From contig CABZMK010000001.1 in assembly GCA_902526865.1 (NCBI GenBank), forward strand, positions 45,768-109,767: a stretch of DNA of 64,000 bases, in the 5' to 3' direction. The notes under the pieces were generated by a model. The model ran no database searches and was not told the DNA's origin. It saw only the letters and a program-made list of their open reading frames with translations. Positions 13,273 to 29,264 of this stretch are shown one piece after another; the first letter of the stretch is position 1; each line of letters begins with the position of its first letter. The stretch is from an uncultured Alphaproteobacteria bacterium. Its GTDB lineage: Bacteria; Pseudomonadota; Alphaproteobacteria; Methylaequorales; Methylaequoraceae. The translations under genes were made by a program, and so were the position numbers.

Positions 13273-14178
13273 AAAAAAAAATTTATAGTATCCAGCTTTT
13301 ATAAATTTGTCTATCTAAGAAATCCTGCTGTAATTAAAAAAAAACTATTAATTAATTTAGAAAAATTCAAAATTAAAGGAACCTTCATCCTTGGAACAGA
13401 AGGTATCAATGCTTCTTTTTCTGTGTCAACAGAACAATTTGATAAAGTTAAAGATTCAATACGAAATTTAATTTCAACTGAAATTAAATTTAAAAATCAA
13501 TTTAATAATAATCATTCTTTTTTAAGACTGAAAATCAAAGAAAAACAAGAAATTATATCTCTAGGACAAAAAAATGTTTCTCCAGAAGAAACAACTGGTT
13601 TTTTTGTTGCCCCTGATTCGTGGGACAAGTTTATTTGTGATCCAGATTCTATAATTATTGATACAAGAAATGAATATGAATCTGATATAGGTTCTTTTAA
13701 AAAGTCTGTAAAAACTAAAACTAATAATTTTAGAGAATTTCCAATTTGGTTTGAAAAACATAAGAAAAAACTTTTTGAAAAAAAAATCGGAATGTTTTGT
13801 ACTGGCGGGATCAGATGTGAAAAAGCAAGTAATTTTTTAATCAATAAGGGATATAAAAACATCTTTCAACTTGATGGTGGAATTATTGAATATTTAAATA
13901 AAACTAAAAATAAGAGTAAGATGTGGAAAGGTGAATGTTTCGTTTTTGATGAAAGAGTTTCATTAAATGATAAACTTGAAAAAGGATTGTATTCACAATG
14001 TTTTGCTTGTAGAGCTGCTTTAACTTACGTTGACACTAAATCAAGGTATTTTAAATTAGGAGTATCGTGCCCAAAATGTTTTAAAGAAAAATCGAAAAAG
14101 CAAAAAGCTAGGTATAAGGAACGACGAAGACAAATGCAAATTGCAAAAAAAAAAGGAATGAAACATATAGGTAGTTAG
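13267..14178 (+). CDS. trhO: Rhodanese-domain protein TrhO/YceA family (tRNA U34 hydroxylase-like)
   Basis: 303 aa; UPF0176 N-domain, rhodanese domain with active-site Cys ([12 protein letters not shown]), C-terminal Cys pairs and Lys-rich tail. Confidence 0.7.
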
Positions 14179-15239
14179 TCATTTCCGAGTTTTGGAATTG
14201 AGTATTTTTTCATTTTTTCAATTAAAGTTGTTCTATTTATTTTCAAGCATTTTGAGGCCTCAGTTACAGATCCGTTGCTTTTTTTTAGTGCTCCTTCTAT
14301 TAAATTAAATTCAACATCGCTTAAGTGTCTTCTAAGATCTATTTTATCTAAAAAGTCGAACCATTTTTTATAATGATTTGGGTGTGGCATTGAATCAGAA
14401 TGAGAACTTGCTTCAATTTGAATTGGAGAAAGGTCGGAGGTCATTGTCCATAACTCCTCTTTCTCCTGTGAGATGTCAGGTAGATTAATTTTTAAAAGAT
14501 TTTCTTTAATATTTTTGCCATTGATTTTTTTATCTGGAAAAATTATTACTGCTCTCTCAATAACATTTTTTAACTCTCTTACATTACCTGGCCATACATA
14601 TTCCTGAAGTGCTTTTATGCCTGTATTATCAATTTGAGGAATAATAGATCCATTGTATTTTAAATCGTCTAAAATATGATTTACAAGAATTGGGATATCA
14701 TCCTTTCTCTCTGCAAGCGAAGGAATTTCAATTGGAAAAACGTTTATCCTAAAAAATAAATCTGCCCTAAAATGACCCTCATCAATTTTTTTTTCAATGT
14801 CTTGGTGTGTAGCACAAATCAGTCTTAAATTAAGATCAATTTCTTTTCTGCCTCCAACACGTTGAATTTTTCTAGTTTCAATTGCCCTTAGTAATTTAGC
14901 CTGAAGTGCCATAGGCATGTCACCTATTTCATCCAAAAATAAGGTGCCATTGTTAGAGGCCTCAAATCTTCCTTCTCTTTTTGAGTCTGCACCAGTAAAT
15001 GCACCTTTTTCATGACCAAATAGCTCAGATTCTAAAAGCTCGGACGGGATTGCTGCACAATTAACGTTTATTAATTCACCATTTCTTTTTGATGATTCAT
15101 GAATAGCCCTAGCAACTACATCTTTACCACACCCTGTCTCACCTCTGAGTAAAACTGTTGAGTTTGATTTTGCAACCATCTCTACAAGTTTTTTTAATTG
15201 TAAAGTTACCTCACATTTTCCTTTGATGATTTCTGACAT
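14175..15239 (-). CDS. Sigma54-dependent transcriptional activator (AAA+ domain plus Fis-type HTH, no receiver domain); FleQ-like flagellar master regulator candidate
   Basis: 354 aa; Walker [15 protein letters not shown] motif ([10 protein letters not shown]), C-terminal HTH ([16 protein letters not shown]); divergent from the fleT-fliE operon. Confidence 0.8.
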
Positions 15240-15269
15240 AATAAATTAACTTATTTATAAATAAAATAA

Positions 15270-15285
15270 TGTCAGAAAACTGACA
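15270..15285. promoter_or_regulatory. 16-bp palindrome TGTCAGAAAACTGACA, candidate enhancer-binding-protein upstream activator site, about 110 bp upstream of a sigma54 promoter
   Basis: Perfect inverted repeat TGTCAG-N4-CTGACA in the divergent regulator intergenic region; near-identical copy at 25803-25818. Confidence 0.5.
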
Positions 15286-15381
15286 ATAATCAAATTTTAA
15301 AAAAAATAAAAAAAAAAAAAAGTTTCTAAGTAATTGATATCGCAAATTAAAATTAATTTAGTAAAAATTTATTTTCTTATT

Positions 15382-15397
15382 TGGCAATATTTTTGCT
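15382..15397 (+). promoter_or_regulatory. Sigma54 (-24/-12) promoter TGGCAA-N5-TTGCT
   Basis: GG-N10-GC spacing with TGGCA and TTGC flanks, immediately upstream of the second activator gene. Confidence 0.6.
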
Positions 15398-15430
15398 TTT
15401 AGATTGAAAACGAAAATAAAGGATTTAAAT

Positions 15431-16588
15431 ATGAAGGAAATATTTATTATTAAAGATTGTTTTGAAGTACACAATGATATACGCGATTTTTTTAGTAAAA
15501 AAGGAAAGGAAATAAAATTAATTGATTCTGATGAAATCAGCGAAATTAAAAGCTCTCAATCCATACTGATTATTGATAAAAAATTCGAAAACAAACAAGG
15601 TGGTAAATCAAATATTCTTAAAGTTGCTAGAAATATAGGTTCTACAAAGTTAATAGTTTTGGATTCAGGAAATGATTGTAGTTATGATTTAAAAAAAGAA
15701 ATGGGCGGAGCTTACATTCAAATTTCTTTCAAAATTATTGATGAGGTTATAAAAGAAATTATTTTTCAAATTATATCTAAGGAAAAGTACAGTTTCTCTG
15801 ATAAGAAAACACTTTCTTTAATAAACATGGTTGAAAAAGTTTCGAAAACTGATGTTACAGTATTCATTCATGGGCCAACCGGAACTGGAAAAGAAGTTAT
15901 TTCAAATCTTATTCATAAAAAGTCGGATAGACATGAAAAGCCTTTTATTGCGATTAATTGTGCTGCAATTCCAGAAAATATGCTTGAAGCAATGTTATTT
16001 GGACATGAAAAAGGCGCTTTTACAGGAGCTTCTTCTGCCAATAAAGGAATTTTTCGAGCTGCGGATAATGGCACACTACTTCTTGATGAAGTATCTGAAA
16101 TGCCGCTGTCCCTCCAAGCAAAACTTCTCAGGGTTCTCCAAGAAAAAAAAGTTACTCCCATTGGCGGACAAAGAGATATTGATGTAAATGTAAGAGTAAT
16201 TGCAACAACGAATAGAGATATGTTAGACGAAGTAAGAGAAAAAAAATTTAGAGAGGATTTATATTATAGACTTAATGTATTCCCAATAGAAACACATAAT
16301 TTATCTGAAAGACCTGATGATATTTTACCAATAAGTATTGCTCTGTTGAATAGACACACAGAAAACAGCCCCTTACCTTACATCAATAAAGATGCTCAAA
16401 AATTATTAAGAGAGTATAGTTGGCCTGGAAATGTTAGAGAGTTAGAAAATGTTCTACAAAGAGCCATAGTTCTTTGTGAAAAAAATATTATTGAGGGTAA
16501 AGACATAATGATAGATGTGTCAAAACAAAGTAATTTTTATAATAACATTCAAGAAAATTTATCAGAAAAAAAATTGATGCAAGCTTAA
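15431..16588 (+). CDS. Sigma54-dependent activator lacking an obvious C-terminal DNA-binding domain, with REC-like N-domain (FleT-like)
   Basis: AAA+ sigma54-interaction domain ([18 protein letters not shown]); no HTH after the AAA+ domain. ATG at 15431 has SD AAGGA; the ORF-track TTG at 15404 would precede the predicted transcription start. Confidence 0.75.
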   Translation: MKEIFIIKDCFEVHNDIRDFFSKKGKEIKLIDSDEISEIKSSQSILIIDKKFENKQGGKSNILKVARNIGSTKLIVLDSGNDCSYDLKKEMGGAYIQISFKIIDEVIKEIIFQIISKEKYSFSDKKTLSLINMVEKVSKTDVTVFIHGPTGTGKEVISNLIHKKSDRHEKPFIAINCAAIPENMLEAMLFGHEKGAFTGASSANKGIFRAADNGTLLLDEVSEMPLSLQAKLLRVLQEKKVTPIGGQRDIDVNVRVIATTNRDMLDEVREKKFREDLYYRLNVFPIETHNLSERPDDILPISIALLNRHTENSPLPYINKDAQKLLREYSWPGNVRELENVLQRAIVLCEKNIIEGKDIMIDVSKQSNFYNNIQENLSEKKLMQA

Positions 16589-16604
16589 TTTTGAAGGAGA
16601 AATC

Positions 16605-16943
16605 ATGAAACCAAATCTTACTAATTTAAAACCAACAGTGACTACACCGAACAATCTAAATGAAATAAAAAAAGTTCAAGAAGAGGTTGCAAATCTGTCT
16701 CCAAAAATAATGGAACCACAAGATGGTGGTTTTTTGGATAATATTAAGTCAGCGATTCAAGAGGTTTCTGATACTCAGAAACAAAGCGCTGAATTAACGA
16801 AAAACTTTGAGCTTGGTATAGAGAACGATCTAACCAAAGTTATGATTCAACAACAATTGTCCAGTTTAGGTTTTCAAATGACTTTAAACGTAAGAAATAA
16901 AGTCTTGAGCGCATATAAAGACATTATGAATATGCCTGTTTAA
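16605..16943 (+). CDS. fliE: Flagellar hook-basal body protein FliE
   Basis: 112 aa; C-terminus ...VRNKVLSAYKDIMNMPV matches the FliE signature; position before fliF. Confidence 0.75.
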   Translation: MKPNLTNLKPTVTTPNNLNEIKKVQEEVANLSPKIMEPQDGGFLDNIKSAIQEVSDTQKQSAELTKNFELGIENDLTKVMIQQQLSSLGFQMTLNVRNKVLSAYKDIMNMPV

Positions 16944-16960
16944 ATTAAAAGGAAAAAATT

Positions 16961-18685
16961 ATGGCTGAAGAAATTCAAACTACTGAAGTAACAAAAAATT
17001 CAATATCAAATCAAGGAATGCTATCAAATATAAGCAACTCTTTAGAAAAAATTAAAAAATTTTCTAATGAACCTGCTGTCCAAAGATCTATCCCAGTTAT
17101 GATAACCTTATTTGTTATTTTTCTTGGTTTAGTTTTTTTTATATCTTTCAAGGAACCACCTAGAACAAGTTTATTTGCATCATTACCTGAACATGAGAAA
17201 TCTAGAGTAATTGATGTTTTAAGGTCTAATGGTATTGATGTTTCAATTGACAGAACTACAGGTGAAATTTTAGTTCCATCACCAGAATATTATGAAGCAA
17301 AAATGAAGCTTGCCGCAGAGGGTTTGCCGAGTTCAGTTCCTCAGGGCTATGATATTCTTGAAAAAATCCCAATGGGAACAAGCAGATCAGTTGAATTTAT
17401 GAAAATGAAACAGACACAAGAAATAGAGCTTGCCAGATCGATAAATGAAATATCTAACATTATTGGTGCAAGGGTACATCTAGCAATTCCTGAAAAATCT
17501 GTTTTTGTCAGAGACTCCTCTCCGCCCACTGCATCTGTATTTGTAAAACTAGCTGATGGAAGAGCTTTAGGATTAGAGCAAATTAGATCAATTGTTCATA
17601 TAGTATCATCATCAATTCCTAATATGACTTCCGACAACGTAACAGTTGTAGATCAATATGGTTCGTTATTATCAAAACCAGAGGATGACCCCAATTTAGC
17701 GATGACAGAGAAACAATTATCTCATAGAGTAAAAATTGAATCTATATACAGAGAAAGAATTTTATCATTAGTTTCTCCAATCGTTGGTGCAGGTAATTTA
17801 ACAGCACAAGTAAATGTTGAAATGGATTTTACAAGCAATCAAACAACAGAAGAAATTTTTGATCCAGAGAGCATTTCAACTAGAAGTGAACAAAATAGTC
17901 AAGACGAATCCACTGATAGACCAGCAAGAGGTATTCCTGGTGCTGTAGCTAACCAAGCACCTCTAGCTGCTGATTTACAGGTTGCAGCTCCTGAAATTGG
18001 GGAGTCAGCAGAATTCAAGCAAAGATCATCCAGTAATGTTAAAAACTATGAAGTTAGTAAAAAACTTAGTACAACCGTTGGTCAAATTGGAAAAATTAAG
18101 AAAGTTAAGACGGCTGTTTTAGTTAAAAACAAAATGATTGAAACTCCAGAGGGCACAGTTGTCTCTGAGCCTATAAGTGAAGAAGATAGAGAAAAAATTA
18201 CTTCTCTTGTTAAAGAAGCGGTTGGTTTCAATGAGGATAGAGAAGACACAATTGTTGTAACCAGTGGAGATTTTATCCAAGAAATGGATGTTATTACAAC
18301 AAAATGGTATGAACAATCATGGTTTCAAAATATGATTGGTCAGTTATCGACTGTTCTAATTCTTGCAATCGTAACATTCGGTGCATTAAAGCCATTGTTA
18401 AATAGAATTTTAGTTCCTTCAGCTGGAACAGCTGCAGGTCCAGGTGGTACTTCTGAAGCTGATCTTGAGGCAGAAGAAGCAGAAGATGAAGTTCAAGTTC
18501 AAGAAGGCGAATCTCTTGAAGACATAAAAGCTAAACTTAAACCAAAAAAATCAACTATTTCAGCAGATATGCTCGATACGGCCAACACTTACGACGATAA
18601 AGTTGCGGTTATAAGGATGATAGTTGGAGATGAAGCTGGAAAAGTTTCAAATGTATTCAGACAACTTATGAAAAAAGATGTATAA
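16961..18685 (+). CDS. fliF: Flagellar M-ring protein FliF
   Basis: 574 aa; N-terminal TM, YscJ/FliF domain, C-terminal TM and acidic tail; followed by fliG. Confidence 0.85.
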   Translation: MAEEIQTTEVTKNSISNQGMLSNISNSLEKIKKFSNEPAVQRSIPVMITLFVIFLGLVFFISFKEPPRTSLFASLPEHEKSRVIDVLRSNGIDVSIDRTTGEILVPSPEYYEAKMKLAAEGLPSSVPQGYDILEKIPMGTSRSVEFMKMKQTQEIELARSINEISNIIGARVHLAIPEKSVFVRDSSPPTASVFVKLADGRALGLEQIRSIVHIVSSSIPNMTSDNVTVVDQYGSLLSKPEDDPNLAMTEKQLSHRVKIESIYRERILSLVSPIVGAGNLTAQVNVEMDFTSNQTTEEIFDPESISTRSEQNSQDESTDRPARGIPGAVANQAPLAADLQVAAPEIGESAEFKQRSSSNVKNYEVSKKLSTTVGQIGKIKKVKTAVLVKNKMIETPEGTVVSEPISEEDREKITSLVKEAVGFNEDREDTIVVTSGDFIQEMDVITTKWYEQSWFQNMIGQLSTVLILAIVTFGALKPLLNRILVPSAGTAAGPGGTSEADLEAEEAEDEVQVQEGESLEDIKAKLKPKKSTISADMLDTANTYDDKVAVIRMIVGDEAGKVSNVFRQLMKKDV

Positions 18686-18709: not shown

Positions 18710-19759
18710 ATGGCTGAAAAAGCTAAGGAAGAAAATAAAGAAGAAGAAGAAAAGTCGCAATATGAAAAATTAACAAGCACTCAAAAATGTGCTATTTTGA
18801 TGATGCTTTTAGGTGAGGAAGAGGCTTCAGAAATTTTAAAAAATTTGGGGCCAAAAGAAGTGCAGCAACTCGGTAAAGAGATGTACAATGTTCAAGGTTT
18901 AGATCAGGAAACTGTCAATAGAGTTTTAGACGAATTTTTAGCCATCATTAAAACACAAACTGATCTGGGAATGGGTTCTACAAACTACATTAGAAATGTA
19001 ATGACAAAAGCCTTAGGTGAAAATAAAGCTCAGTCTGTTCTTGGAAGAATTACTCCTACTGAAAGTGACAAACCAATAGAAATTTTAGATTGGATGGATG
19101 CCAGATCAGTCGCAGAATTAATTTCTGATGAACATCCACAAATAATGGCTTTGATAATTTCGTATTTAGAGCCTGGTGTTGCAGCAGATGTTTTAACTTT
19201 GCTACCTGAAGAAACTCAATCTGATATTATTCATCGTATTGCAACCCTAGAAACAGTTCAACCAGACGCTTTGGCAGAGTTGGAAAGAGTTATGCAACTT
19301 AAATTTAAAACAAACACTTCATTGCGAGCCTCCTCAGTCGGGGGAATAAAAGATGCTGCATCAATAATGAATTTTACAAAGCAGAATATGGAACAAAGAA
19401 TCATGAAAACGTTAGGTGAAAAGGATAGAAATTTAGCTAAAGAAATTCAGGAAAGTATGTTTACCTTTGATACATTAATTTTAATGGATGATAGAAGCAT
19501 GCAAACTTTATTAAGAAATGTTGATCAAGAAATTCTTATAATTGCCCTTAAAGGAACAGAAGACGAATTAAAAGACAAGATTTTCTCGTGCATGTCTCAA
19601 AGAGCTTCGGCAAACATCAGAGATGAAATGGAAGTACTTGGCCCACTGAGACTTACAGAGGTTCAAGAGGCTCAGAAGGCTATAATCAATGTAGCAAGAA
19701 CTATGTCAGACGAAGGAACAATTGTGCTTGCTGGAAGAGGTGGAGATGACTTCGTATGA
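18710..19759 (+). CDS. fliG: Flagellar motor switch protein FliG
   Basis: 349 aa; FliG N/M/C domains (AILMMLLGEEEASEILKNL; torque helix region). Confidence 0.85.
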   Translation: MAEKAKEENKEEEEKSQYEKLTSTQKCAILMMLLGEEEASEILKNLGPKEVQQLGKEMYNVQGLDQETVNRVLDEFLAIIKTQTDLGMGSTNYIRNVMTKALGENKAQSVLGRITPTESDKPIEILDWMDARSVAELISDEHPQIMALIISYLEPGVAADVLTLLPEETQSDIIHRIATLETVQPDALAELERVMQLKFKTNTSLRASSVGGIKDAASIMNFTKQNMEQRIMKTLGEKDRNLAKEIQESMFTFDTLILMDDRSMQTLLRNVDQEILIIALKGTEDELKDKIFSCMSQRASANIRDEMEVLGPLRLTEVQEAQKAIINVARTMSDEGTIVLAGRGGDDFV

Positions 19760-20622
19760 TGCCACTCACAGATAAAACCGTAGCTCAGCAAAAAAGTGAT
19801 GAAAAAATTTCTGGAGCACTAAGCACTGAAGAAATTGTTAGTTTATTAAATAAAAGTAATAAAGACTTCGTAAAAGAGTCAGATATTACTTCTAACATTA
19901 CCAATTTGTTTAAAAAAGTTACTCCGTTATCCCTCGCACAAAAAAATAAAGAAATAACATCAGAAAAAAAAGAAGAAGTAACAAAAGATTTGAATGAGGT
20001 TTCTGAAAGTAAGGATAAGGAACCAACAAGTGACATTATTGATGAAAAAAAACCAGAAAATGAAAAAGTATATACAGAAATAGAAGCACAAAAATTAGCC
20101 AATGATTTAGCAAAACAATATTACAATAATGGTTATAAACTTGGAGTAAAAAAAACTACTGAAGAGCTTCAAAAAGGAGAAAAATCTCTTGCTGTAACAC
20201 TTAAAAATACAACTGATAATATTTTTAAAATGACGCCAGAATTTGTAGATGAATTAAACAAATCAATAACAAATTTACTTTCAAATTTATCAAAAGAAGT
20301 TTTAGGTTACGAGATAGATAATAACAATAAATTATTTCAAGAAAAAATTAAGCAAGTTGTCAATTCAGTTGAAAACTCAATTGAAAAAATTGTAGTTTTT
20401 TTAAATCCTAAAGATTTTGAAGCTATAAAAGTTTACAACAGTAAAAATAATTTAAGTTTATCATTTGAAATAAATCAAGATGCAAAACTTGAACGAGGTG
20501 ATATGAGAATAAAATCGGGATCAATAGAGATGAGTGACATTGTTTCTAAAAAAATCAAATATTCAATACCTAATGAAATTGAGAAAGATCTTGAAGATGT
20601 CAAATTAAATGCTCAAAAATAA
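19756..20622 (+). CDS. fliH: Flagellar export protein FliH (by position and composition)
   Basis: 288 aa charged coiled-coil protein between fliG and fliI; 4-bp overlap with fliG. Confidence 0.55.
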   Translation: MMPLTDKTVAQQKSDEKISGALSTEEIVSLLNKSNKDFVKESDITSNITNLFKKVTPLSLAQKNKEITSEKKEEVTKDLNEVSESKDKEPTSDIIDEKKPENEKVYTEIEAQKLANDLAKQYYNNGYKLGVKKTTEELQKGEKSLAVTLKNTTDNIFKMTPEFVDELNKSITNLLSNLSKEVLGYEIDNNNKLFQEKIKQVVNSVENSIEKIVVFLNPKDFEAIKVYNSKNNLSLSFEINQDAKLERGDMRIKSGSIEMSDIVSKKIKYSIPNEIEKDLEDVKLNAQK

Positions 20623-20646: not shown

Positions 20647-21966
20647 ATGGTTATAGCAAAAAAAATACTCCAGACTATAGATTCACATACTATAACTCAA
20701 AATAGGATCTATAAGAGTAAAACATCAAAATTTGATGGTAAAGTTGTCGAATGTGAAGCATTTCCCTCACCAATCGGCACAACATGTGAAATAGAATGTA
20801 ATGACAAAACTATAGTCACGGGAGAAATTATTGGTTTCAAAGAAAATAAAAATATTATTGCCGTTCATGAACATAATGCAAACATAATTTTAGGATCTGA
20901 AATAAGAGTCTTAAATTCATCAAATGATGTAATTGTGGGTTCTCATTTACTTGGAAGGGTTTTAGATGCTTTTGGGAATCCAATAGATGGTGGCGCAAAA
21001 ATAAATGACTCTGCAGAAACATGGCCGATTAATGGAAAACCCAATAATCCAATGTCAAAAAAACCGATAAATGAAGTGCTAGATGTTGGTATTAGAGCGA
21101 TCAATTCACTTTTTACTGTAGGAAGAGGCCAAAGGCTTGGAATTATTGCAGGTTCTGGAGTTGGAAAATCTATTTTACTTGGAATGATGACTAAGTTTAC
21201 TAACGCAGATGTTGTTGTTGTAGCACTAATCGGAGAAAGAGGAAGAGAATTAGGTAATTTTGTATCAGAGATATTGAATGACGAATCAAGAAAAAGGACT
21301 GTCACCTTAGCTGTACCAGCAGACAAATCTCCATTGTTAAGAATTAAAGGAGCAGAAAGAGCAACTTCAATCGCAGAATATTTTAGGTCTAAAGGAAAAA
21401 ACGTTTTGCTTATCATGGACTCTCTTACCAGAATAGCTCACGCTAAACGAGAGGTGGGGTTGGCACTGGGTGAACAACCTACTTCAAAAGGATACCCAAC
21501 ATCTGTAATTTCAATGATTCCAAATCTAATTGAAAGAACAGGAGCCGGTTCAAAAAATGAAGGAACTATAACAAGTTTCTATACAATACTGGCAGATTCT
21601 GATGACACGAACGACCCTGTGGTAGACACTGCTAGGGCAATATTAGACGGACATATTGTATTATCTAGAGAACTTGCACAACTTGGAATCTTTCCTGCAA
21701 TTGATTTAAATCAATCATTAAGTAGAGTAATGAATTCTATTGTTAACGAAGAACATCAAAATCAGTCTGAATTAGTAAAAAAATTATACTCCATATACCA
21801 AGAAAACAAAGATCTCATTCTTATGGGTGGATATGCCCAAGGGCAAAACCCTGAAATTGATAGTGCATTAAATAATTGGAATAAAATTTGCAACCATATA
21901 AAACAGCATTTTAAAAAAAAATCAAGTTTTGAAGACAGCATATCAAGCTTGAAGAAGATTAACTGA
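20647..21966 (+). CDS. fliI: Flagellum-specific ATP synthase FliI
   Basis: 439 aa; Walker A GSGVGKS, F1/T3SS ATPase-like core. Confidence 0.9.
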   Translation: MVIAKKILQTIDSHTITQNRIYKSKTSKFDGKVVECEAFPSPIGTTCEIECNDKTIVTGEIIGFKENKNIIAVHEHNANIILGSEIRVLNSSNDVIVGSHLLGRVLDAFGNPIDGGAKINDSAETWPINGKPNNPMSKKPINEVLDVGIRAINSLFTVGRGQRLGIIAGSGVGKSILLGMMTKFTNADVVVVALIGERGRELGNFVSEILNDESRKRTVTLAVPADKSPLLRIKGAERATSIAEYFRSKGKNVLLIMDSLTRIAHAKREVGLALGEQPTSKGYPTSVISMIPNLIERTGAGSKNEGTITSFYTILADSDDTNDPVVDTARAILDGHIVLSRELAQLGIFPAIDLNQSLSRVMNSIVNEEHQNQSELVKKLYSIYQENKDLILMGGYAQGQNPEIDSALNNWNKICNHIKQHFKKKSSFEDSISSLKKIN

Positions 21967-21970
21967 TGAC

Positions 21971-22384
21971 ATGAAAAAAAGAAAATATGATATTTTTTTA
22001 ATCCTTAAAAAATTAAAGAAAAATAAGCTGCTTAACAATTTATCTACACTACATAATGAAAAAAAAAGGCTAGATTTTGTAAAAGAAACGCTGAATGAAA
22101 TGTTAAATCAAAGCTCTGTAAACAAACTTGGTGAACTTTCAGGTTCAGATTTAAAGTTTAGAGCTTCTTTTACAAGCAATTTAATTAATAAACTGGAGGT
22201 TTCAAAAAATAGGGAAAATCATGTATTAGACGAAATTAGTTATAATTTAAAAGAAATAGTAAAAATTGAAAAACAAAAAGAAAAAATAAGTGAAAAAAAG
22301 AAATTTATCAAAATACAAGAGGATAAAGTAAAAGAATTAAAAAAAGAAAATTATTTCAACCCTAAAAATTCAGTTTCTCTTTGA
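21971..22384 (+). CDS. fliJ: Flagellar export chaperone FliJ (by position; coiled coil)
   Basis: 137 aa K/E-rich coiled-coil ORF directly after fliI. Confidence 0.5.
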   Translation: MKKRKYDIFLILKKLKKNKLLNNLSTLHNEKKRLDFVKETLNEMLNQSSVNKLGELSGSDLKFRASFTSNLINKLEVSKNRENHVLDEISYNLKEIVKIEKQKEKISEKKKFIKIQEDKVKELKKENYFNPKNSVSL

Positions 22385-22387: not shown

Positions 22388-22403
22388 TGGCATTATAATT
22401 GCA
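22388..22403 (+). promoter_or_regulatory. Sigma54 promoter TGGCAT-N5-TTGCA
   Basis: GG-N10-GC, excellent match, 25 bp upstream of the fliK-like ATG. Confidence 0.6.
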
Positions 22404-22427: not shown

Positions 22428-23738
22428 ATGGTTGCAATAAAAAATGATACTAGCAAAAACATAAATTTCGTAAACTCAACTTTACATTCTGAAAAAACAA
22501 ATGAGCTATTTGCTGAACTCTTTGCACTAATAAATACAAATAGTTTAGATCCTGAAAATAAAAATTTACTGAAAGATGTAGTCTTACAAAAACCTGAAAC
22601 TAAAGAATTTTTGGATGTAAATAAAAATATCCCTGAAAATAGTTTGTTGAAAGTTACTTCCGAGCAGAAAAATAAATTTGAGGTTACAGATTCTGAATAC
22701 GAGACTGCAAAATCACTTATAGAGGTATTTTATAAAGAAATTGGTATTGTCGAACCTTTGAATCAAACAAAAAATGCTAATCCAAACAGTTTAAATCAAA
22801 ATCCAAAATCATTATTAAATAAAAATTTTACAACAGGAAAAAAAAAAATAGCTGTAGAGAATAAATTGGATTCTAATGAGTTTGATTTAGCTCTAAAAAA
22901 TGATAATTCAAAAAAAATTGTTATAAACATAATTAAAGATCCTTCACATTACAAAAAAATTAATAAAGATGATCACCGTCCAAAATTTTTTACAGAAAAT
23001 AAAAGTCAGATTGATAATAAAGTACTAAAGCAGCAAAATGAGTTTAATTACAAAGCAAATAACACAAACTTTGAAACTGCGAGTATTAACAAAAAAATAA
23101 ACAAAAAAAATAAACAATTTAAAGTTTCAGCAAAGGATAAAATTGAACACAACCACCTAATTACAAAACAAGTTAAAATTGAGAATAGAAAAAATACTAA
23201 TTTTACTCAAATTATGAAAAAATCAGGAGAAATTCAAATAGGTCAGAAAAGAGAAATCAGCAATAAAGATTTTTTAAAAACCGTGGAAACTAAAGATAAT
23301 CAGATGCAAAATAAAGGGCAAATCTTTTTGGATTTATTGGAGAGTAGCTGGGGCGAAAAATTCTCTCGAATTGTAAAAAATGCGGTCAATAACGGTGTAA
23401 ACAAATTAGAAATTCAAGTTAAACCAAAGAATTTAGGCAAATTAAATCTCGAGGTTTCTGTGAAAAATAGTGTCACAGCCATTAATATTGGATCAGAGAA
23501 TCAAGATGTTGTAAGTCTTCTTAATGACAACCTTCCAAAACTTTTAGAATCAATTGATAAAGAAAGCAAAAGTTTCTCAAGTAATATGAATAATGAAGAT
23601 AACAATAGTAATTATTTTAACCAAAGAAATGAAAAAGAAAATTTTTTGTCGAACAATGAAATTTCCAAAAAGAATAAAAAAGAAGTTGAAAATAAAAATC
23701 AAAAATTTAGTAATCATAATATTGATGTGAATGCCTAA
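22428..23738 (+). CDS. fliK: Flagellar hook-length control protein FliK-like
   Basis: 436 aa low-complexity N/K-rich protein with C-terminal Flg_hook-like domain (LEIQVKPKNLGKLNLEVSV...AINIGSENQDVVSLL). Confidence 0.65.
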   Translation: MVAIKNDTSKNINFVNSTLHSEKTNELFAELFALINTNSLDPENKNLLKDVVLQKPETKEFLDVNKNIPENSLLKVTSEQKNKFEVTDSEYETAKSLIEVFYKEIGIVEPLNQTKNANPNSLNQNPKSLLNKNFTTGKKKIAVENKLDSNEFDLALKNDNSKKIVINIIKDPSHYKKINKDDHRPKFFTENKSQIDNKVLKQQNEFNYKANNTNFETASINKKINKKNKQFKVSAKDKIEHNHLITKQVKIENRKNTNFTQIMKKSGEIQIGQKREISNKDFLKTVETKDNQMQNKGQIFLDLLESSWGEKFSRIVKNAVNNGVNKLEIQVKPKNLGKLNLEVSVKNSVTAINIGSENQDVVSLLNDNLPKLLESIDKESKSFSSNMNNEDNNSNYFNQRNEKENFLSNNEISKKNKKEVENKNQKFSNHNIDVNA

Positions 23739-23765: not shown

Positions 23766-24398
23766 ATGGCAGAAGAGAATAATCAAGAAACTGAAAAGAA
23801 GTCACCCTTAAAATTAATTTTGATGATTGTAGGTGGCATAGTCCTTCTAGGAACAGGTATTGGAGTTGGAATTTTCATGGGTGGGGGAGAGGATACAGAT
23901 CCATCAGCTGAGATATCTCAGATTATTGAAAAAAAAGAAAACCCTGAACCATCAAAAAATGAAGACGATGAAAATATTGATGAGGCTGCTGCTGAATGTG
24001 CGGAAGAAGAAAAAGACGAAGAAGGCAACTGTCCTTCAGGTCCAAAGAAGATTCCAAAGATCACACCTGAAGAAGAAATATTTACAACAACGTATTATGA
24101 ATTTCCTGGTAATTTCACAGCCAATTTAAAGGGTTCAAAAAAGTTTCTTCAACTCTCAGTCGGAGTTTCAACTCAATATGACGAACAAGTAATGGTAAAT
24201 GTAGAGAGTCATCAACTTGCTCTTAGATCTGAAATATTGACCATCATGTCGGAATTTTCTTCTGAAGATATTGCTGGTAAAGAGGGTAAAAATAACTTGG
24301 CTGAATCATTGAGAGATGGAATTAATGAGGTTCTTGTAAAAGTTGAAGGCTTTGGTGGAATCGAAAATGTTCATTTTACCTCATTTGTAGTACAATAG
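23766..24398 (+). CDS. fliL: Flagellar basal body-associated protein FliL
   Basis: 210 aa; single N-terminal TM then FliL periplasmic domain (YYEFPGNFTANLKGSKKFLQLSVGVS). Confidence 0.7.
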   Translation: MAEENNQETEKKSPLKLILMIVGGIVLLGTGIGVGIFMGGGEDTDPSAEISQIIEKKENPEPSKNEDDENIDEAAAECAEEEKDEEGNCPSGPKKIPKITPEEEIFTTTYYEFPGNFTANLKGSKKFLQLSVGVSTQYDEQVMVNVESHQLALRSEILTIMSEFSSEDIAGKEGKNNLAESLRDGINEVLVKVEGFGGIENVHFTSFVVQ

Positions 24399-24410: not shown

Positions 24411-25388
24411 ATGTCTGAACCATCAAGGAAATTATCAACCGAAGAAGTCAACGCCTTAATGGACGGTCTTAAATCAGGAGATTTAAGTGCATCAACTTCA
24501 GTTAAAGATGGAACTGCGATTGAGTACAAAAAATTTAATTTTGGCTCAGACGATCTTTCACTTTTAGGAGACTATTACGCTTTAAGACTGATAAATGAGA
24601 GGTTCGCAAGAACGGTTAGAGGAGTATTTCTCCCATTGCTAAGAGTTCAACCTAGAATAAGTTCGTTTCCCCCAGAAGTAAAATCTTTCGAAGAATACAG
24701 TTCGGGTTTAGATGCATTTATGAGTTTAACAAATAGTAGAATAGACGAGTTAAGAGGTTCCATGCTGACTGTTCTGCCACCATCTTTTGTTAGCCTTTGT
24801 ACTAGTAGTAGATATGGAGGAAAATTAGAGGTTAATGACGCTTCGAGAAGTGAATTTACTGCAACCGAAGAAAAAATAATCGAAGTTATAAATAATGGAA
24901 TCTCAGAGGTTCTTGAACAATGTTGGAAAGATCTAACGCCTATTTCAATCAAATTTCAAAGTAGAGAGCAAAATCCACAGTTTGCTGCTTTTGTAGAATC
25001 TACAGATTTAGTTATAGTATGTTCATTTGTAATGCAGTTACCTAACATTGACTCAATGTCTTTCGATGTAGTTTACCCACTTCAAACACTTAAACCAGTT
25101 TCATCTTTACTGAGATCCAGAGTTCAATCTGATGTAGTTGAGTCTAACATGACGTGGAGAGATAAGCTAGAAAAAGCAATATTAGAAATTCCTTTATTAG
25201 TCAAAAGTAATCTAAGTGAACCGGTTGTCTCAATGTCTAAATTGCTGAGAATGAAGGCAGGAGACACGTTAAACGTAAATTTAGAAGATAAGGTCGATTT
25301 TTATGTTGAAAATCAAAAATACTTTAAAGCTGAAATGGGAGAACTTAACGGCAATGCTTCAGTAAAGCTTGCTACACGAAATAATTAA
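24411..25388 (+). CDS. fliM: Flagellar motor switch protein FliM
   Basis: 325 aa; N-terminal CheY-binding-like LSTEEVNALM; FliM middle domain; C-terminal SpoA-like. Confidence 0.8.
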   Translation: MSEPSRKLSTEEVNALMDGLKSGDLSASTSVKDGTAIEYKKFNFGSDDLSLLGDYYALRLINERFARTVRGVFLPLLRVQPRISSFPPEVKSFEEYSSGLDAFMSLTNSRIDELRGSMLTVLPPSFVSLCTSSRYGGKLEVNDASRSEFTATEEKIIEVINNGISEVLEQCWKDLTPISIKFQSREQNPQFAAFVESTDLVIVCSFVMQLPNIDSMSFDVVYPLQTLKPVSSLLRSRVQSDVVESNMTWRDKLEKAILEIPLLVKSNLSEPVVSMSKLLRMKAGDTLNVNLEDKVDFYVENQKYFKAEMGELNGNASVKLATRNN

Positions 25389-25399: not shown

Positions 25400-25801
25400 A
25401 TGAATGCAGAAACCGCAGAAAAAGATAAAAATCAAACCGAGCAAGCTCAGGAAGAAACTAAGGCACCTGAAGCCTCAGCTGAAAATCAGGTCAATAAACC
25501 TGAGACAGAATCCACAAAGACCGCAGACAAAAATACTGCAGCAGTAAGTAATTTGAGACTTCTGGAAAACATAGAAGTAAAACTTACTGTTGAAGTTGGA
25601 AATACTGAAATTAAAATCAAAGACTTGTTAAGATTAAATGAAGGATCAGTTGTTGAACTAGATAGATTGGCTGGAGACGCTTTAGATATTTTAGCAAATG
25701 GGACAAAAATTGCTAAAGGCGAAGTTGTTATGGTTGGTGAAAAATTTGGTATAAGATTTACTGAAGTTGCTACCCCAGAGGAACTAATTGAAAACTTATA
25801 A
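25400..25801 (+). CDS. fliN: Flagellar motor switch protein FliN
   Basis: 133 aa; C-terminal SpoA domain (LLRLNEGSVVELDRLAGDALDILANGTKIAKGEVV). Confidence 0.85.
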   Translation: MNAETAEKDKNQTEQAQEETKAPEASAENQVNKPETESTKTADKNTAAVSNLRLLENIEVKLTVEVGNTEIKIKDLLRLNEGSVVELDRLAGDALDILANGTKIAKGEVVMVGEKFGIRFTEVATPEELIENL

Positions 25802-25802
25802 T

Positions 25803-25818
25803 TGTCAGGAAATTGACA
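25803..25818. promoter_or_regulatory. 16-bp palindrome TGTCAGGAAATTGACA, candidate activator (FleQ-box-like) site about 65 bp upstream of a sigma54 promoter
   Basis: Second copy of the TGTCAGnAAAnTGACA motif; followed by a T-run and could double as a weak terminator stem after fliN. Confidence 0.5.
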
Positions 25819-25880
25819 TCTTCTTTTTTAATCAATAATTTATAAATAAAATCAACAACTTACAATAAGTGTCGTTGTTA

Positions 25881-25896
25881 CGGCAAGGTTTTTGCA
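25881..25896 (+). promoter_or_regulatory. Sigma54 promoter CGGCAA-N5-TTGCA upstream of fliO
   Basis: GG-N10-GC spacing; lies in the fliN-fliO gap. Confidence 0.55.
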
Positions 25897-25929
25897 TTCC
25901 TCTTGTATTAACTAATCAAGAGGGGAAAA

Positions 25930-26256
25930 ATGCCAGAATATGTAGGTCCAAGTTTATCAAACTATTTACTCGTATTAGGATTTTTAGCTCTGCTTTTTGT
26001 AGGCTTGTATTATATAAAGAAAAACAAACACATAATCTCAAGAACCATTAATTCAAAAAAAAGAATGAAAGTATCTGAAGTTACCCTACTGGGACAAGGC
26101 GATAGAGCTTTAATCTTAAATTTAGATAATAAAGATTATCTTTTTATTTCTGGGAAAAATTCTGGTTCTTTATTGACAGAAATAAAAAATAACAGTCTTA
26201 AAGGTAACAATCTTGAGAAAGTATTTGAAAATAGGCTAAGAAATGAAAAAAATTAA
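25930..26256 (+). CDS. fliO: Flagellar biosynthesis protein FliO
   Basis: 108 aa with single TM; position before fliP, which it overlaps. Confidence 0.6.
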   Translation: MPEYVGPSLSNYLLVLGFLALLFVGLYYIKKNKHIISRTINSKKRMKVSEVTLLGQGDRALILNLDNKDYLFISGKNSGSLLTEIKNNSLKGNNLEKVFENRLRNEKN

Positions 26257-26989
26257 TTTTTTGATTTTAATTATTATTCTTTTTCCATTTTTTGGGTTTT
26301 CTCAAATGGCTCCTGAAGGATTAGAAGCATTAACTATTACTGAGTCAGAAAATGGCACAAAAACATATTCTGTGTCTCTAAAAATTTTAGCCTTGATGAC
26401 AGCTTTAACAATTCTGCCTTCACTCGTTTTAGGAATGACTGCTTTTACAAGAATTATTATTGTTATGTCTATTTTAAGACAAGCTCTTGGCACACAGCAA
26501 ACACCGCCTAACCAAATTTTAGTTGCTATATCCTTATTTCTTACTTTTTTTGTAATGGCACCCACCTTTAATAAAATTTACTCTGATGTTTCCGAACCTT
26601 ATAATAATGGAGAAATGAATTTATCTGAGGCAGTTGAAAGTGGCGGGGGAGAGCTAAAAAAATTCATGGTTAAAAATACAAGAAAAAATGACCTGCTAAT
26701 GTTTTCAGAGATGGCAAATGAGGGAAAGTTTGAAAATAGTTCTCAAATTCCCTTTTACATTGTTTTACCAGCATATATTACAAGTGAATTAAAAACTGCA
26801 TTTCAGATTGGTTTTTTACTTTTTTTACCTTTTTTGGTAATAGATATGGTTGTAGCTTCAGTTTTAATGTCGCTTGGTATGATGATGTTGTCTCCAATGT
26901 TAATTGCCCTTCCCTTTAAACTACTCCTTTTTGTTTTAGTTGATGGTTGGTCAATGACTGTGGGATCTCTGGTTGGAACGTTTTCATGA
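26243..26989 (+). CDS. fliP: Flagellar export apparatus protein FliP
   Basis: 248 aa; signal peptide; FliP core (MTAFTRIIIVMSILRQALGTQQTPPNQ). Confidence 0.9.
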   Translation: MKKINFLILIIILFPFFGFSQMAPEGLEALTITESENGTKTYSVSLKILALMTALTILPSLVLGMTAFTRIIIVMSILRQALGTQQTPPNQILVAISLFLTFFVMAPTFNKIYSDVSEPYNNGEMNLSEAVESGGGELKKFMVKNTRKNDLLMFSEMANEGKFENSSQIPFYIVLPAYITSELKTAFQIGFLLFLPFLVIDMVVASVLMSLGMMMLSPMLIALPFKLLLFVLVDGWSMTVGSLVGTFS

Positions 26990-27009
26990 ATTTAGTGTTT
27001 TAGGAGTAA

Positions 27010-27282
27010 TTGGTAATGGGATTTGATCAAAATGTTGAAATGATAAGATTAGCTTTTTATCAAGTTTTGATTTCTAGTGGCCCATTTCTAGGTGCAGCTC
27101 TTGCTATTGGCTTGGTTATTGGAATTATTCAAGCAGCCACTTCAATCCAGGAAATGACACTTAGTTTTGTTCCAAAAATTGTCATAGTTATCTTTGCAAT
27201 AGGATTTTTGGCTAATTTTCTTTTAGTAAGTTTAACCGATTATTTTCAATTTATTTTTGATACAATTTCAGGAATAAATTAA
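27010..27282 (+). CDS. fliQ: Flagellar export apparatus protein FliQ
   Basis: 90 aa, two TMs, FliQ-like. Confidence 0.8.
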   Translation: MVMGFDQNVEMIRLAFYQVLISSGPFLGAALAIGLVIGIIQAATSIQEMTLSFVPKIVIVIFAIGFLANFLLVSLTDYFQFIFDTISGIN

Positions 27283-28097
27283 TGTTTATTCCATTACCTT
27301 TTTACAGTCCTATGGATGCCCTACCAGGACTCGAATTAAACTCTCTTATTGAGTACTTATTTAAATTCTTTTTATGTTCGATAAGATTATCAGCATTTTT
27401 CATATCAAGCCCTTTTTTTGGTTCAAGAGTTATTCCTTTAAATGTAAAGATAATTTTTTCTTTAGTGATTTCATTTTTTTATTTTGGGTATCTCTCTGAT
27501 ATTCAAATATCAGAACAAATTCTTGATAACCTTGTTATTGTAGTAATTGCAGAAGCTTTGATTGGATTATCATTGGGTTTAACATTAACAATATGGTTTG
27601 CAGCAGCAAGTTTGGCTGGAGAGAAAATAGCAGCTACTACTGGGTTAGGTTTTTCCCAAATGGTTGATCCAGATACAGGCGGACAAACACCCGTAATTAG
27701 TCTAATATTAGACTTATTCTTAATTACTATTTTTTTATCGTTAAATGGACATTTAATTGCGATTGAATTTTTATTTAAAAGCTTTGAAATTTTTAATATT
27801 AATGACGGAATACCCCCATTTGGTCTTGTCGGTTTGGGCATAGAAGCTGCTGGTGCTATGTTTTATACGGGAGGATTAATAATGCTTCCAGTTGTTGGAG
27901 CACTTTTACTAACAAACATTGCAATAGGAATTATAACAAGAGCAGCTCCTCAATTAAATATGTTTTCGTTTGCATTTCCTGTAACTATGATTCTAGCTTT
28001 CTTTATAATGTATTTAGCTTCTCAATCTATAGGAAATGCATTTGCAGAGCTTACCAATAGTTCTTTAGAATCGATAGAAAATATACTCGTTAATTAA
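27282..28097 (+). CDS. fliR: Flagellar export apparatus protein FliR
   Basis: 271 aa polytopic; follows fliQ with start/stop overlap. Confidence 0.8.
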   Translation: MFIPLPFYSPMDALPGLELNSLIEYLFKFFLCSIRLSAFFISSPFFGSRVIPLNVKIIFSLVISFFYFGYLSDIQISEQILDNLVIVVIAEALIGLSLGLTLTIWFAAASLAGEKIAATTGLGFSQMVDPDTGGQTPVISLILDLFLITIFLSLNGHLIAIEFLFKSFEIFNINDGIPPFGLVGLGIEAAGAMFYTGGLIMLPVVGALLLTNIAIGIITRAAPQLNMFSFAFPVTMILAFFIMYLASQSIGNAFAELTNSSLESIENILVN

Positions 28098-28112
28098 AAA
28101 GGATATAATTGA

Positions 28113-29264
28113 ATGGCAGAAGACAAAGACGAAAGTCAAGAAAAAACCGAGGAACCAACCGCCCGAAGACTTGAAAAAGCAAAAGAGGATGGGAAAGTTC
28201 TGTCTTCAAAAGAAGCTTTTGTTTTTAGTTCAATGTTCATGGGAGTATTACTATTTTATCTAGCTCCAATGCTTTTAGACGATTTTTTAAAAATTTGTAA
28301 ATCTCTATTTTCGTTTGGGCCAGAGTTAGCCTCTGGAAAGTCTCCTCTGGAATCTGTTACTGTAGTTGTAAAATTTTTCATTCAAGTATTTTTAATTTTT
28401 TCAATACCACTATTAGTAGTAAGTGTTCTAACGCAATTTTTAATCGGTGGAATAAACTTCTCCTTAAAGTCAGTTTACTGGAAGTTTGAAAAAATGAATC
28501 CAATTAAAGGATTAAAAAGAATATTTTCACTTAAAGGATTAGTAGAGTTAGTTAAAGCTATATTGAAAGTCAGTCTTCTTGGTCTGGTAGCTTTTTATCT
28601 GATTGAAAATAATTTATCTGATTTAGTCAACTTAACAACTGCTAATATTTTTTCCGCAGTAAATAGACTTTTTTCTTTTTTTCCAGAAATAATTGCCTAT
28701 CTCCTTGTCGTTCTCGCATTCATAGCTTTTATAGATGTGGTTTACCAAAAGTATGATTATATTAAGCAACTAAGAATGTCTCATCAAGACCTCAAAGACG
28801 AATACAAAGAAACTGATGGACAACCAGAAGTCAAACAAAAAATAAGAAAACTTCAAGCCGAAGCTGCAACAAAAAGTAGAAAAGAAGCATCGTCTGTTGA
28901 TAACCTTGAAGAAGCTACTGCAATAATTACAAACCCAACACACTTTGCCGTAGCTCTGAAATATGAGGTTGGGGACGCAAAAGCTCCTACAATTATATCA
29001 AAAGGAAGAGGTAAAATTGCTGAATCTATAATTAAGAAAGGAAAAGAACTTAAGATTGGTACAATGCAAAGTCCTAAACTGGCAAGAGCAATATACTATA
29101 CATCTGAAATTGGTGATGAAATTATGAGTAAGCTTTACAATGCTGTTGCTATTGCCTTAGCATATATTTATAAAATAGATAATGGAGAAGAAATTGAGAA
29201 ACCAGAGATAGAGGTACCTGAAGATATGATTTTTGATGAGTTTGGGAGAAAAAATGATCAATAG
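28113..29264 (+). CDS. flhB: Flagellar export apparatus switch protein FlhB
   Basis: 383 aa; four TMs then cytoplasmic domain with NPTH autocleavage motif (ITNPTHFAVAL). Confidence 0.9.
   Translation: MAEDKDESQEKTEEPTARRLEKAKEDGKVLSSKEAFVFSSMFMGVLLFYLAPMLLDDFLKICKSLFSFGPELASGKSPLESVTVVVKFFIQVFLIFSIPLLVVSVLTQFLIGGINFSLKSVYWKFEKMNPIKGLKRIFSLKGLVELVKAILKVSLLGLVAFYLIENNLSDLVNLTTANIFSAVNRLFSFFPEIIAYLLVVLAFIAFIDVVYQKYDYIKQLRMSHQDLKDEYKETDGQPEVKQKIRKLQAEAATKSRKEASSVDNLEEATAIITNPTHFAVALKYEVGDAKAPTIISKGRGKIAESIIKKGKELKIGTMQSPKLARAIYYTSEIGDEIMSKLYNAVAIALAYIYKIDNGEEIEKPEIEVPEDMIFDEFGRKNDQ

Follow-up and report, generated by a model that had tools for sequence, protein, structure and literature searches.

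A Fla1/fla3-type flagellar gene cluster in a streamlined marine methylotroph of the order TMED127

Is a sigma-54-dependent flagellar gene cluster in a small, AT-rich marine genome a working organelle that belongs to its host, or is it a remnant or an import? We addressed this question for a 64-kb stretch of alphaproteobacterial DNA (the whole stretch that was analysed, called the window below), in which positions 14175 to 29264 encode two sigma-54 activators followed by the flagellar genes fliE to flhB. Comparable streamlined plankton such as SAR11 and OM43 are regarded as non-motile. We conclude, with a probability of roughly 0.8, that this region encodes the early (class II/III) half of a functional flagellar system, native to its host and polar in type, that belongs to the Fla1/fla3 family and is carried by a TMED127 (Methylaequor-like) bacterium. 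What is new here is a Fla1/fla3 cluster native to an abundant streamlined methylotroph, the motility of which is undiscussed in the literature that we found.

The host could be placed through FliI. The FliI protein of the window is 96 to 97% identical to those of four GORG single-cell genomes (AG-892-F10, AG-349-G20, AG-891-J16 and AH-287-P08), which Table S1 of Glass and co-workers (AEM 2025, PMC12542740) lists under o__TMED127, g__GCA-2691245, AG-892-F10 being named Methylaequor ceniphilum. The same paper describes TMED127 as a deep-branching alphaproteobacterial order, the members of which are probably obligate, lanthanide-dependent methylotrophs, and estimates their genomes at 1.3 to 1.6 Mb. 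Low-GC SAR116 and HIMB59/AEGEAN-169 had also been considered as hosts, but the SAR116 genome table lists none of the related single-cell genomes. The host genus is GCA-2691245 ('Methylaequor') of the order TMED127/Methylaequorales, a marine methylotroph of about 1.5 Mb and 30% GC, which confirms the AT-rich, streamlined alphaproteobacterial host proposed in a preliminary description of the sequence. The order accounts for up to several per cent of surface-ocean communities.

Core cluster, activators and promoters

Genes were called from a listing of open reading frames (ORFs) and from Pfam and NCBIfam scans of the window. On the minus strand, a first enhancer-binding protein (EBP1, FleQ-like, 354 aa, 14175-15239; Pfam Sigma54_activat, AAA_lid_14 and HTH_8) is encoded divergently from a second one (EBP2, FleT-like, 385 aa, 15431-16588; Sigma54_activat and lid). 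The latter heads a block that comprises fliE (16605-16943), fliF (16961-18685), fliG (18710-19759), fliH (19756-20622) and fliI (20647-21966), all recognised by Pfam, and a fliJ candidate (21971-22384, 137 aa), which was named from its position, size and conservation and has no Pfam match. Then come fliK (22428-23738), fliL (23766-24398), fliM (24411-25388), fliN (25400-25801), fliP (26243-26989), fliQ (27010-27282), fliR (27282-28097) and flhB (28113-29264), again from Pfam, with a 108-aa fliO (25930-26256) between fliN and fliP that was matched only by NCBIfam TIGR03500, at 26.8 bits and below its cut-off. From the fleT-like gene to flhB all genes are on the plus strand and every reading frame is intact. 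This is the gene order of the preliminary description, which was also right that flgB-L, flhA, fliA and fliC/D/S are missing from the window. A TTG at 15404 was considered as the start of EBP2 and dropped for the ATG at 15431; a sigma-54 promoter lies at 15382-15396. Genes from fleT-like to fliJ are tightly packed, with gaps of at most 25 nt, and 43 nt separate fliJ from fliK. We infer that fleT-like-fliEFGHIJ forms one operon with a sigma-54 promoter, as fleT does in Rhodobacter sphaeroides Fla1. The autocleavage site NPTH is present in FlhB, and the N-terminus of FliM, LSTEEVNALM, resembles the consensus of the CheY-P binding motif.

The two activators have distinct architectures. In EBP1, the AAA+ domain begins at residue 7, so that there is no N-terminal regulatory domain, and is followed by the lid and a Fis-type helix-turn-helix (HTH); the GAFTGA and Walker A/B motifs are intact. 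Its best match among solved structures is Pseudomonas aeruginosa FleQ (278 bits), and the next is Vibrio FlrA. This architecture is kept in all TMED127, SAR116 and Octadecabacter arcticus loci (347 to 377 aa). EBP2 consists of an N-terminal region of 120 to 130 residues, the AAA+ domain and the lid, without HTH, and its best match among solved structures is V. cholerae FlrC (271 bits). AlphaFold gives its N-domain an alpha/beta fold (predicted local distance difference test, pLDDT, 73 to 90); the AAA+ part is poorly modelled (pLDDT below 50) because the alignment was shallow, and the N-domain alone is usable. With Foldseek, the full-length model aligns with the receiver plus AAA+ proteins NtrC1, LuxO and FleQ. 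Since the position of the phospho-acceptor Asp is occupied by D, G, S, H or C across lineages, and since the acidic pocket is absent, we regard this domain as a pseudo-receiver.

A pseudo-receiver is consistent with the lack of a kinase: no histidine kinase domain was found in the scanned ORFs of at least 90 aa, which are nearly all such ORFs in the 64 kb. HTH_8 is found in EBP1 only, and the same holds for every related locus and for O. arcticus. Loss of the HTH from the second activator is thus a property common to the whole fla3-like clade described below, and the homologue found upstream of fliE in Aquicella, a gammaproteobacterium, retains it. Both earlier statements on the activators, that one has an HTH and no receiver while the other has a REC-like domain and no HTH, and that no sensor kinase accompanies them, agree with these Pfam, AlphaFold and Foldseek results.

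Perfect sigma-54 sites (TGGCA-N6-TTGC) occur five times in the window, compared to 0.24 expected, and none of 100 shuffled sequences reached five. All five lie upstream of a gene or ORF and are oriented with it: the fleT-like gene, fliK, a transglycosylase gene (38654-38668, minus strand), an unannotated 56-aa ORF (38011-38025, minus strand, 27 nt upstream) and a triple bactofilin operon (40725-40739, plus strand). The first -24/-12 promoter, TGGCAATATTTTTGC (15382-15396, plus strand), is 35 nt 5' of the fleT-like start codon. A TGG-N9-TGC element is present upstream of the same gene in 11 other TMED127 loci, mostly at 41 to 56 nt (162 nt in locus L015); it is also found 5' of the fleT-like gene in SAR116 and related loci, at 144 to 215 nt in four of eight, and O. 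arcticus likewise has a sigma-54 element before its fleT-like gene. The second, TGGCATTATAATTGC (22388-22402, plus strand), precedes fliK, and a promoter is found at this place in 22 of the 22 loci examined and in O. arcticus. Two sigma-54-like promoters have one mismatch to the search pattern. One is TGGCACAGATTGTGC before orf29659 (29590-29604, plus strand), where an element TGGYAY-N5-TGTGC is kept in TMED127, SAR116 and O. arcticus; the other is TGGTATTAAAGTTGC, 52 nt before motA (34747-34761, minus strand), and O. arcticus carries TGGCACTTTCCTTGC before its own motA. A one-mismatch site also precedes fliO. A scan with the sigma-28 consensus gave nothing convincing.

The flagellar system reaches past the span 14175-29264, with further parts between 29233 and 38641. 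The gene for sigma-54 itself, rpoN (36248-37708, plus strand), encodes all three Pfam domains and the RpoN box; O. arcticus likewise has rpoN within its cluster. The stator is encoded on the minus strand by motB/pomB (32727-33911) and motA/pomA (33922-34695), both identified with Pfam, and MotB has its plug and transmembrane Asp. Among solved structures MotA is closest to Vibrio PomA, with 210 bits compared to about 150 for MotA proteins, and the two stator proteins are 66% and 45% identical to those of the O. arcticus fla3 cluster.

In R. sphaeroides Fla1, FleQ and sigma-54 (RpoN2, encoded within the locus) drive fleT-fliEFGHIJ, and FleT, which has no DNA-binding domain, acts solely in FleQ/FleT hetero-oligomers on later promoters (PMC7277832, PMC11999139). 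By analogy, EBP1 would bind DNA via its HTH and, with the sigma-54 encoded 7 kb downstream, would fire the promoter at 15382, yielding the fleT-like-fliEFGHIJ transcript for the MS ring, rotor and export ATPase. The FleT-like protein, which would need no kinase as it has neither a DNA-binding domain nor a conserved phospho-acceptor, would join EBP1 in mixed rings. Such rings could redirect activation to the remaining sigma-54 promoters of the window (fliK-flhB, orf29659-orf30392, motAB and transglycosylase) and, on contigs assigned to TMED127, to those of flgB-E, flgP-flgT-flgA-flgM, flhA-flhF-flhG-fliA and flgF'. Timing of the late genes would next fall to FliA (sigma-28) and FlgM, and FlhF/FlhG would imply a control of polar placement and number. 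Taken with FlgT/FlgP, the PomA-like stator points to a motor like that of Vibrio, perhaps driven by sodium. In this scheme, the genes, their domains, the conserved promoters, the family and the vertical descent come from the sequences analysed, whereas mixed rings, promoter classes, ion specificity and motility itself are drawn from the analogy with R. sphaeroides.

Relatives of the cluster

The Octadecabacter clusters have been assigned to fla3, which in R. sphaeroides specifies the subpolar 'Fla1' flagellum (PMC5030684; PMC12363192). The likeness to R. sphaeroides Fla1 rests on published descriptions, and plasmid pOA238_118 of O. arcticus 238 was used as its stand-in at the sequence level. 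This plasmid was the best match in a protein search of plasmids (FliI, 53%), and its cluster has the gene order of the window throughout: activators, fliE-flhB, post-flhB ORFs, rpoN, motAB and a gene for an Lcl_C protein. The Aeromonas and Pseudomonas 'plasmid' references turned out to be clusters without FleQ-type activators.

Identity of the window FliI is 53 to 59% with fla3 and SAR116 proteins, 44 to 48% with those of gamma- and betaproteobacteria, and 33 to 39% with those of Azospirillum and fla2-type Rhodobacterales. A FliI tree was built by neighbour-joining with 200 bootstraps and rooted with injectisome ATPases; it is a tree of a single protein with few references, R. (Cereibacter) sphaeroides not being among them. 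One clade, with 100% support, unites TMED127, SAR116 of high and low GC, a third low-GC lineage, two Paracoccaceae metagenome-assembled genomes (MAGs) and O. arcticus. This fla3-like clade joins the gamma/beta proteins at 97.5%, and Azospirillum with the fla2-type Rhodobacterales forms a separate clade at 100%. The identities of ten proteins agree with the grouping.

With the Fla1/fla3 clusters of R. sphaeroides and O. arcticus, the window shares the divergent FleQ-like activator without N-domain and the HTH-less FleT-like protein heading fliEFGHIJ. The likeness to O. arcticus extends to the fliK-flhB block with the same unnamed ORFs behind it, to rpoN and motAB within the cluster or close to it, to sigma-54 promoters at the same positions and to the 100% FliI clade; a separate secreted transglycosylase recalls R. 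sphaeroides. The H-ring/basal-disk proteins FlgT and FlgP, and FliA and FlgM for the late genes, are encoded on TMED127-assigned contigs but not in the window. However, the proteins of the window are only 41 to 67% identical to those of fla3, and its host belongs to a different, deep-branching order with 30% GC and 1.5 Mb. The TMED127 cluster occupies a conserved chromosomal site and is apparently vertically inherited, whereas fla3 is scattered, and in TMED127 fliC/fliD/fliS and flhA/fliA would lie away from the core cluster. The window stator is PomA-like, whereas R. sphaeroides Fla1 is proton-driven; finally, FlhF is encoded on TMED127-assigned contigs, and the cluster of the window has no che genes.

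Closer relatives are found in SAR116/Puniceispirillales, of high and low GC, and in the AG-896-G13/SP81 lineage, which share with the window its gene arrangement between the FleQ-like gene and orf30392 and its promoters, at 44 to 71% protein identity. These relatives also resemble the TMED127-assigned loci in the flhA-flhF-flhG-fliA and flgP-flgT-flgA-flgM arrangement and in a very large FlgE. SAR116 differs in having fliS upstream of the FleQ-like gene, plus flagellin (L046) or fliD and a chloride-channel gene (L050), as in Vibrio and Pseudomonas, whereas in TMED127 housekeeping genes occupy this place. The chloride-channel gene, of the CLC type with CBS domains, stands among fliD/fliS and the FleQ-like gene in SAR116 (L026, 70-1812; L050, 1466-3151) and in O. 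arcticus (L226, 5865-7607). A passenger shared by these two points to common descent of the clusters.

The preliminary description had seen in the window an enteric/Pseudomonas/Vibrio organisation, as in fla1. Order, activator pair and rpoN do fit, but the closest relatives are alphaproteobacterial, not gammaproteobacterial. With Vibrio (FlrA, FlrB/FlrC) and Pseudomonas (FleQ, FleS/FleR, FleN) the window has in common the order (fliS)-master activator-second activator-fliE...fliJ-fliK...flhB, the dependence on sigma-54 and then sigma-28, and activators and a MotA that best match FleQ/FlrA, FlrC and PomA; flhA-flhF-flhG-fliA and the H-ring genes are present in the TMED127-assigned loci and not in the window. 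In contrast to these systems, no FleS/FlrB kinase turned up among the scanned ORFs of the window, both the HTH and the conserved phospho-Asp have been lost from the second activator, and the master activator is divergently transcribed, without an N-domain of the FleQ type; identities are 23 to 57%.

The native alphaproteobacterial systems (Caulobacter with CtrA/FlbD/FliX, fla1 and fla2 of Rhodobacterales, Azospirillum) share the universal core proteins with the window. Their gene order differs: an example is flgB-flgC-fliE-fliQ-(transglycosylase)-flhA-fliR-flhB, divergent from fliI, on a Sulfitobacter plasmid, with shorter stretches of it in Salipiger and Azospirillum. FliI of the window, 33 to 39% identical to theirs, falls in a separate clade, and the NCBIfam FlbD model scores 278 to 292 bits, compared to a cut-off of 750. 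The preliminary description was right that the layout is not of the Caulobacter type, and the phylogenetic check that it proposed, carried out for FliI, separates the window from the native alpha types and places it in a fla3-like clade sister to gamma/beta. In a separate AT-rich lineage (L093, L173, L169, L180 and others; metagenome loci, GC 0.26 to 0.32), the layout is fliR-flhB-...-fliI-...-flhA, and FliI, only 41 to 45% identical to that of the window, groups neither with the fla3-like/gamma-beta proteins nor with the native alpha ones in the FliI tree.

Completeness, function and descent

No flhA was present in any of the 80 FliI loci. It was therefore sought with a codon-biased scan of metagenomes for FlhA motifs (120 mixed loci), followed by homologue searches, and contigs were assigned with a tetranucleotide classifier trained on the FliI loci. 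Four related FlhA groups were obtained, with the common layout flgP-flgT-x-flgA-flgM divergent from flhA-flhF-flhG-fliA-x-flgF'. Group G3, that of L200, was assigned to TMED127 (0.94 to 0.99), and the low-GC groups G1 and G2 went to other low-GC lineages. Two candidates for TMED127 were rejected: L119/L201/L217, whose composition is that of another low-GC lineage and whose single-cell genome is not in the TMED127 table, and L212/L213, which composition assigns to low-GC SAR116. The G3 FlhA P0254 is on the 215,832-bp contig Ga0117902_1000033, and the longest contig of the TMED127 FleT-type protein P0071 (flanked by rhodanese and EBP1) also measures 215,832 bp; a G3 FlhA and the TMED127 FleT-type protein co-occur in sample ERZ23498633. 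The G3 loci (L218, L219, L225) contain flgB, flgC, flgD, flgE, flgM, flgA, flgT, flgP, flhA, flhF, flhG, fliA and a flgF-like gene; in TMED127-assigned loci, flgB, flgP, flhA and flgF' are each preceded by a sigma-54 site. Of the parts to be looked for in the rest of the genome, flhA and flgB-E are thus accounted for on contigs assigned at the level of the order, at which the rest of the apparatus is not absent; flagellin was not seen.

The hook protein of these loci is very large. FlgE of model bacteria has about 400 aa. It has at least 1284 to 1301 aa in the TMED127-assigned loci L218/L219/L225 and at least 1558 to 1573 aa in the low-GC SAR116 loci L212/L213, being cut by the locus end in both cases, and 1410 aa in O. 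arcticus (L226, 1-1442; NC_020909.1, 65333-69565).

The genes could instead be a remnant, or an export apparatus put to another use (a basal body for secretion, as in some reduced genomes), rather than a motility organelle. A streamlined genome of about 1.5 Mb, filament genes that were not found, the lack of any report of motility for TMED127 bacteria and the description as non-motile of Octadecabacter strains with this cluster type (PMC5030684) would all fit. However, motAB, the switch proteins, the presumed CheY-binding peptide of FliM, fliK, fliL and the MotB plug are intact and conserved; TMED127-assigned contigs retain the hook genes flgD/E as well as flgM, fliA, flhF/flhG and flgT/flgP; and flagellar proteins are among the best conserved of the window across genera. 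We therefore consider a remnant improbable.

Several points nevertheless weigh against a working Fla1/fla3 flagellum in this genus. The only TMED127 paper that we found (PMC12542740) makes no mention of flagella, motility or flagellar transcripts, and a literature search on TMED127 and flagella brought nothing further of relevance. The Octadecabacter strains referred to above are two type strains. As regards family membership, the tree is a neighbour-joining one of one protein with few references, and FleQ/FleT, MotF and SltF of R. sphaeroides were matched by description and not by sequence. The flhA cluster is tied to the genus of the window by order-level evidence, that is, composition, one contig match and sample co-occurrence, and the published TMED127 table does not list the single-cell genome (GCA_902599235.1) that gave locus L225. 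Finally, no flagellin, fliD, fliS, flgG-L or chemotaxis genes turned up for TMED127; the 10-kb flanks end within the very large flgE.

If the flagellum does work, a conserved system of more than 30 genes in a genome of about 1.5 Mb means that swimming is worth its cost to TMED127. The cells would presumably swim toward methanol-releasing phytoplankton or particles, a point absent from the sole paper on the order. The practical gain is modest, as the machinery and its regulation are already known in kind.

The question of import can be put to the flanks. The cluster lies at an identical site, behind tpr21-DUF2794-DUF1289-marC-rhodanese, in the genera GCA-2691245, TMED13 and SP4073, and at the same chromosomal site in eight long-read contigs of 0.29 to 1.49 Mb. 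Flagellar proteins are better conserved than those of the flanks, with identities of 87 to 100% for FliG and 75 to 98% for FliF, compared to 47 to 69% for flank proteins in the other genera; divergence of cluster and flanks is congruent, with SP4073 the most distant for both. GC at third codon positions (GC3) is 0.215 for flagellar genes and 0.205 for other and flank genes (P = 0.39). Total GC is higher in the cluster than in the flanks (0.325 compared to 0.289), but the excess is confined to codon positions 1 and 2 and therefore reflects amino-acid constraint. Equal GC3 and an insertion site conserved across the TMED127 genera show that the cluster is old and vertically inherited, and not a recent import.

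A recent acquisition of the cluster as a genomic island, from a gammaproteobacterium or another fla3 carrier, which the preliminary description had proposed to test with GC3, is accordingly not supported, and we judge it very unlikely. The family is known to be mobile, with fla3 and fla2 clusters dispersed among Rhodobacterales and a fla3 cluster that is carried by a plasmid (PMC12363192); a gamma origin has been proposed for R. sphaeroides Fla1 (PMC7277832), and the total GC of the cluster does exceed that of the flanks. But GC3 matches, site and flanks are identical in at least three TMED127 genera with congruent divergence, the nearest relatives are alphaproteobacterial (FliI 53 to 59%, compared to 44 to 48% for gamma), and no insertion sequence elements, integrases or tRNA genes were noted at the borders among the annotated ORFs, no tRNA scan having been made. 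A chimeric or mis-binned assembly, joining a flagellar cluster of SAR116 or other origin to TMED127 housekeeping genes, can be dismissed: many relatives are indeed single-cell or metagenome assemblies, and in one of them (L044, CABZPW010000015.1, AG-896-G13) the last 3 kb or so are an inverted second copy of fleT-fliE-fliF, but the junctions of the window recur in four independent single-cell genomes (88 to 100% protein identity), and MAGs of other genera as well as eight long-read contigs have them too; tetranucleotide composition is uniform. The inverted end of L044 most likely arose as a chimera during single-cell amplification and has no biological meaning.

Vertical inheritance in TMED127 may be part of a larger picture. 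The Fla1/fla3 type looks vertically inherited in this order and widespread, with conserved gene order, in SAR116 and the third low-GC lineage. It has been studied almost only in R. sphaeroides, where it is usually described as foreign and gamma-derived; its range is now widened to at least three whole marine alphaproteobacterial lineages, in which it is apparently inherited vertically. A tentative and rather doubtful extension would make the kinase-less FleQ/FleT flagellum ancestral to deep-branching marine Alphaproteobacteria (TMED127, SAR116 and the third low-GC lineage) rather than a gamma import, with Rhodobacterales, including R. sphaeroides, having received it from them. The FliI tree cannot polarise the direction of transfer between Rhodobacterales and the marine lineages. 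The presence of Fla1/fla3 across three such lineages does make the origin of Fla1 testable by a proper phylogeny, which bears on the long-held view of its gammaproteobacterial origin in R. sphaeroides. Were the ancestral reading true, sigma-54 and its two activators would in TMED127 serve little besides the flagellum and adjacent envelope and cell-shape genes (transglycosylase, bactofilin operon), and one of the most abundant streamlined methylotrophs of the ocean would swim, possibly powered by sodium, with a hook protein of unusual size.

Further genes of the window

Directly after flhB, two small ORFs (29233-29662, plus strand), for an 80-aa membrane protein and a 66-aa Cys-rich protein, are conserved: identities are 50 to 97% in TMED127 and 31 to 56% in SAR116, and the second is 34% identical in O. 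arcticus. No family match was found for either. They are followed by an operon (29659-31801, plus strand) that begins with orf29659 (241 aa, one transmembrane helix and coiled coils) and orf30392 (a membrane protein of 266 aa). TMED127, SAR116 and O. arcticus all keep these two genes behind flhB, and neither matches a Pfam or NCBIfam family. Being bitopic and having its own sigma-54 promoter, orf29659 is a candidate for a MotF-like protein, by the description in PMC7277832.

Directly after orf30392, in those TMED127 loci that reach that far, comes a divergent paralogue of ribosome recycling factor (31202-31801, plus strand; Pfam RRF 46 bits, NCBIfam frr 30 bits compared to a cut-off of 149). 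In some low-GC SAR116 loci this gene is present inverted.

Divergent from motA, a secreted protein with an Lcl_C/DUF1566 domain (Pfam) is encoded at 34811-35284 (plus strand). The fla3 cluster of O. arcticus has a homologue of 33% identity next to its motA (L226, about 37438), and the protein may be an undescribed accessory component of this type of flagellum. The lytic transglycosylase (38036-38641, minus strand; Pfam SLT, Sec signal peptide) is, by the description in PMC7277832, a candidate for an SltF-like enzyme. Between its gene and rpoN, the 56-aa ORF (37814-37984, minus strand) may encode a small protein or else mark a non-coding RNA.

Further on, genes for an M23 peptidase (38678-40057) and a membrane protein (40062-40604) are divergent from three tandem bactofilin genes (40752-41850), and the perfect sigma-54 site at 40725-40739 lies in the intergenic region that they share. 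This apparent bactofilin/M23 cell-shape module may be co-regulated with the flagellum. After the bactofilin operon, the segment 42180-44650 holds orf42180, orf42560 (a secreted Sel1-repeat protein), a small ORF and an ion-transport channel gene. In two related low-GC lineages such a block follows the flhA-fliA-flgF' cluster (L201, L213, L214, L216 and L217, about 16000-18500), the L213 copy being without the channel; its placement in the window is a rearrangement. In size and repeat type the 216-aa Sel1 protein may resemble MotX, of which no sequence was found among solved structures.

Well away from the flagellar genes, on the minus strand (55231-58585), genes for an FGE-sulfatase/DinB protein (EgtB-like), a histidine-specific methyltransferase (EgtD-like) and a class-V aminotransferase (EgtE-like) adjoin, which suggests a thiol-histidine pathway of the ergothioneine type.

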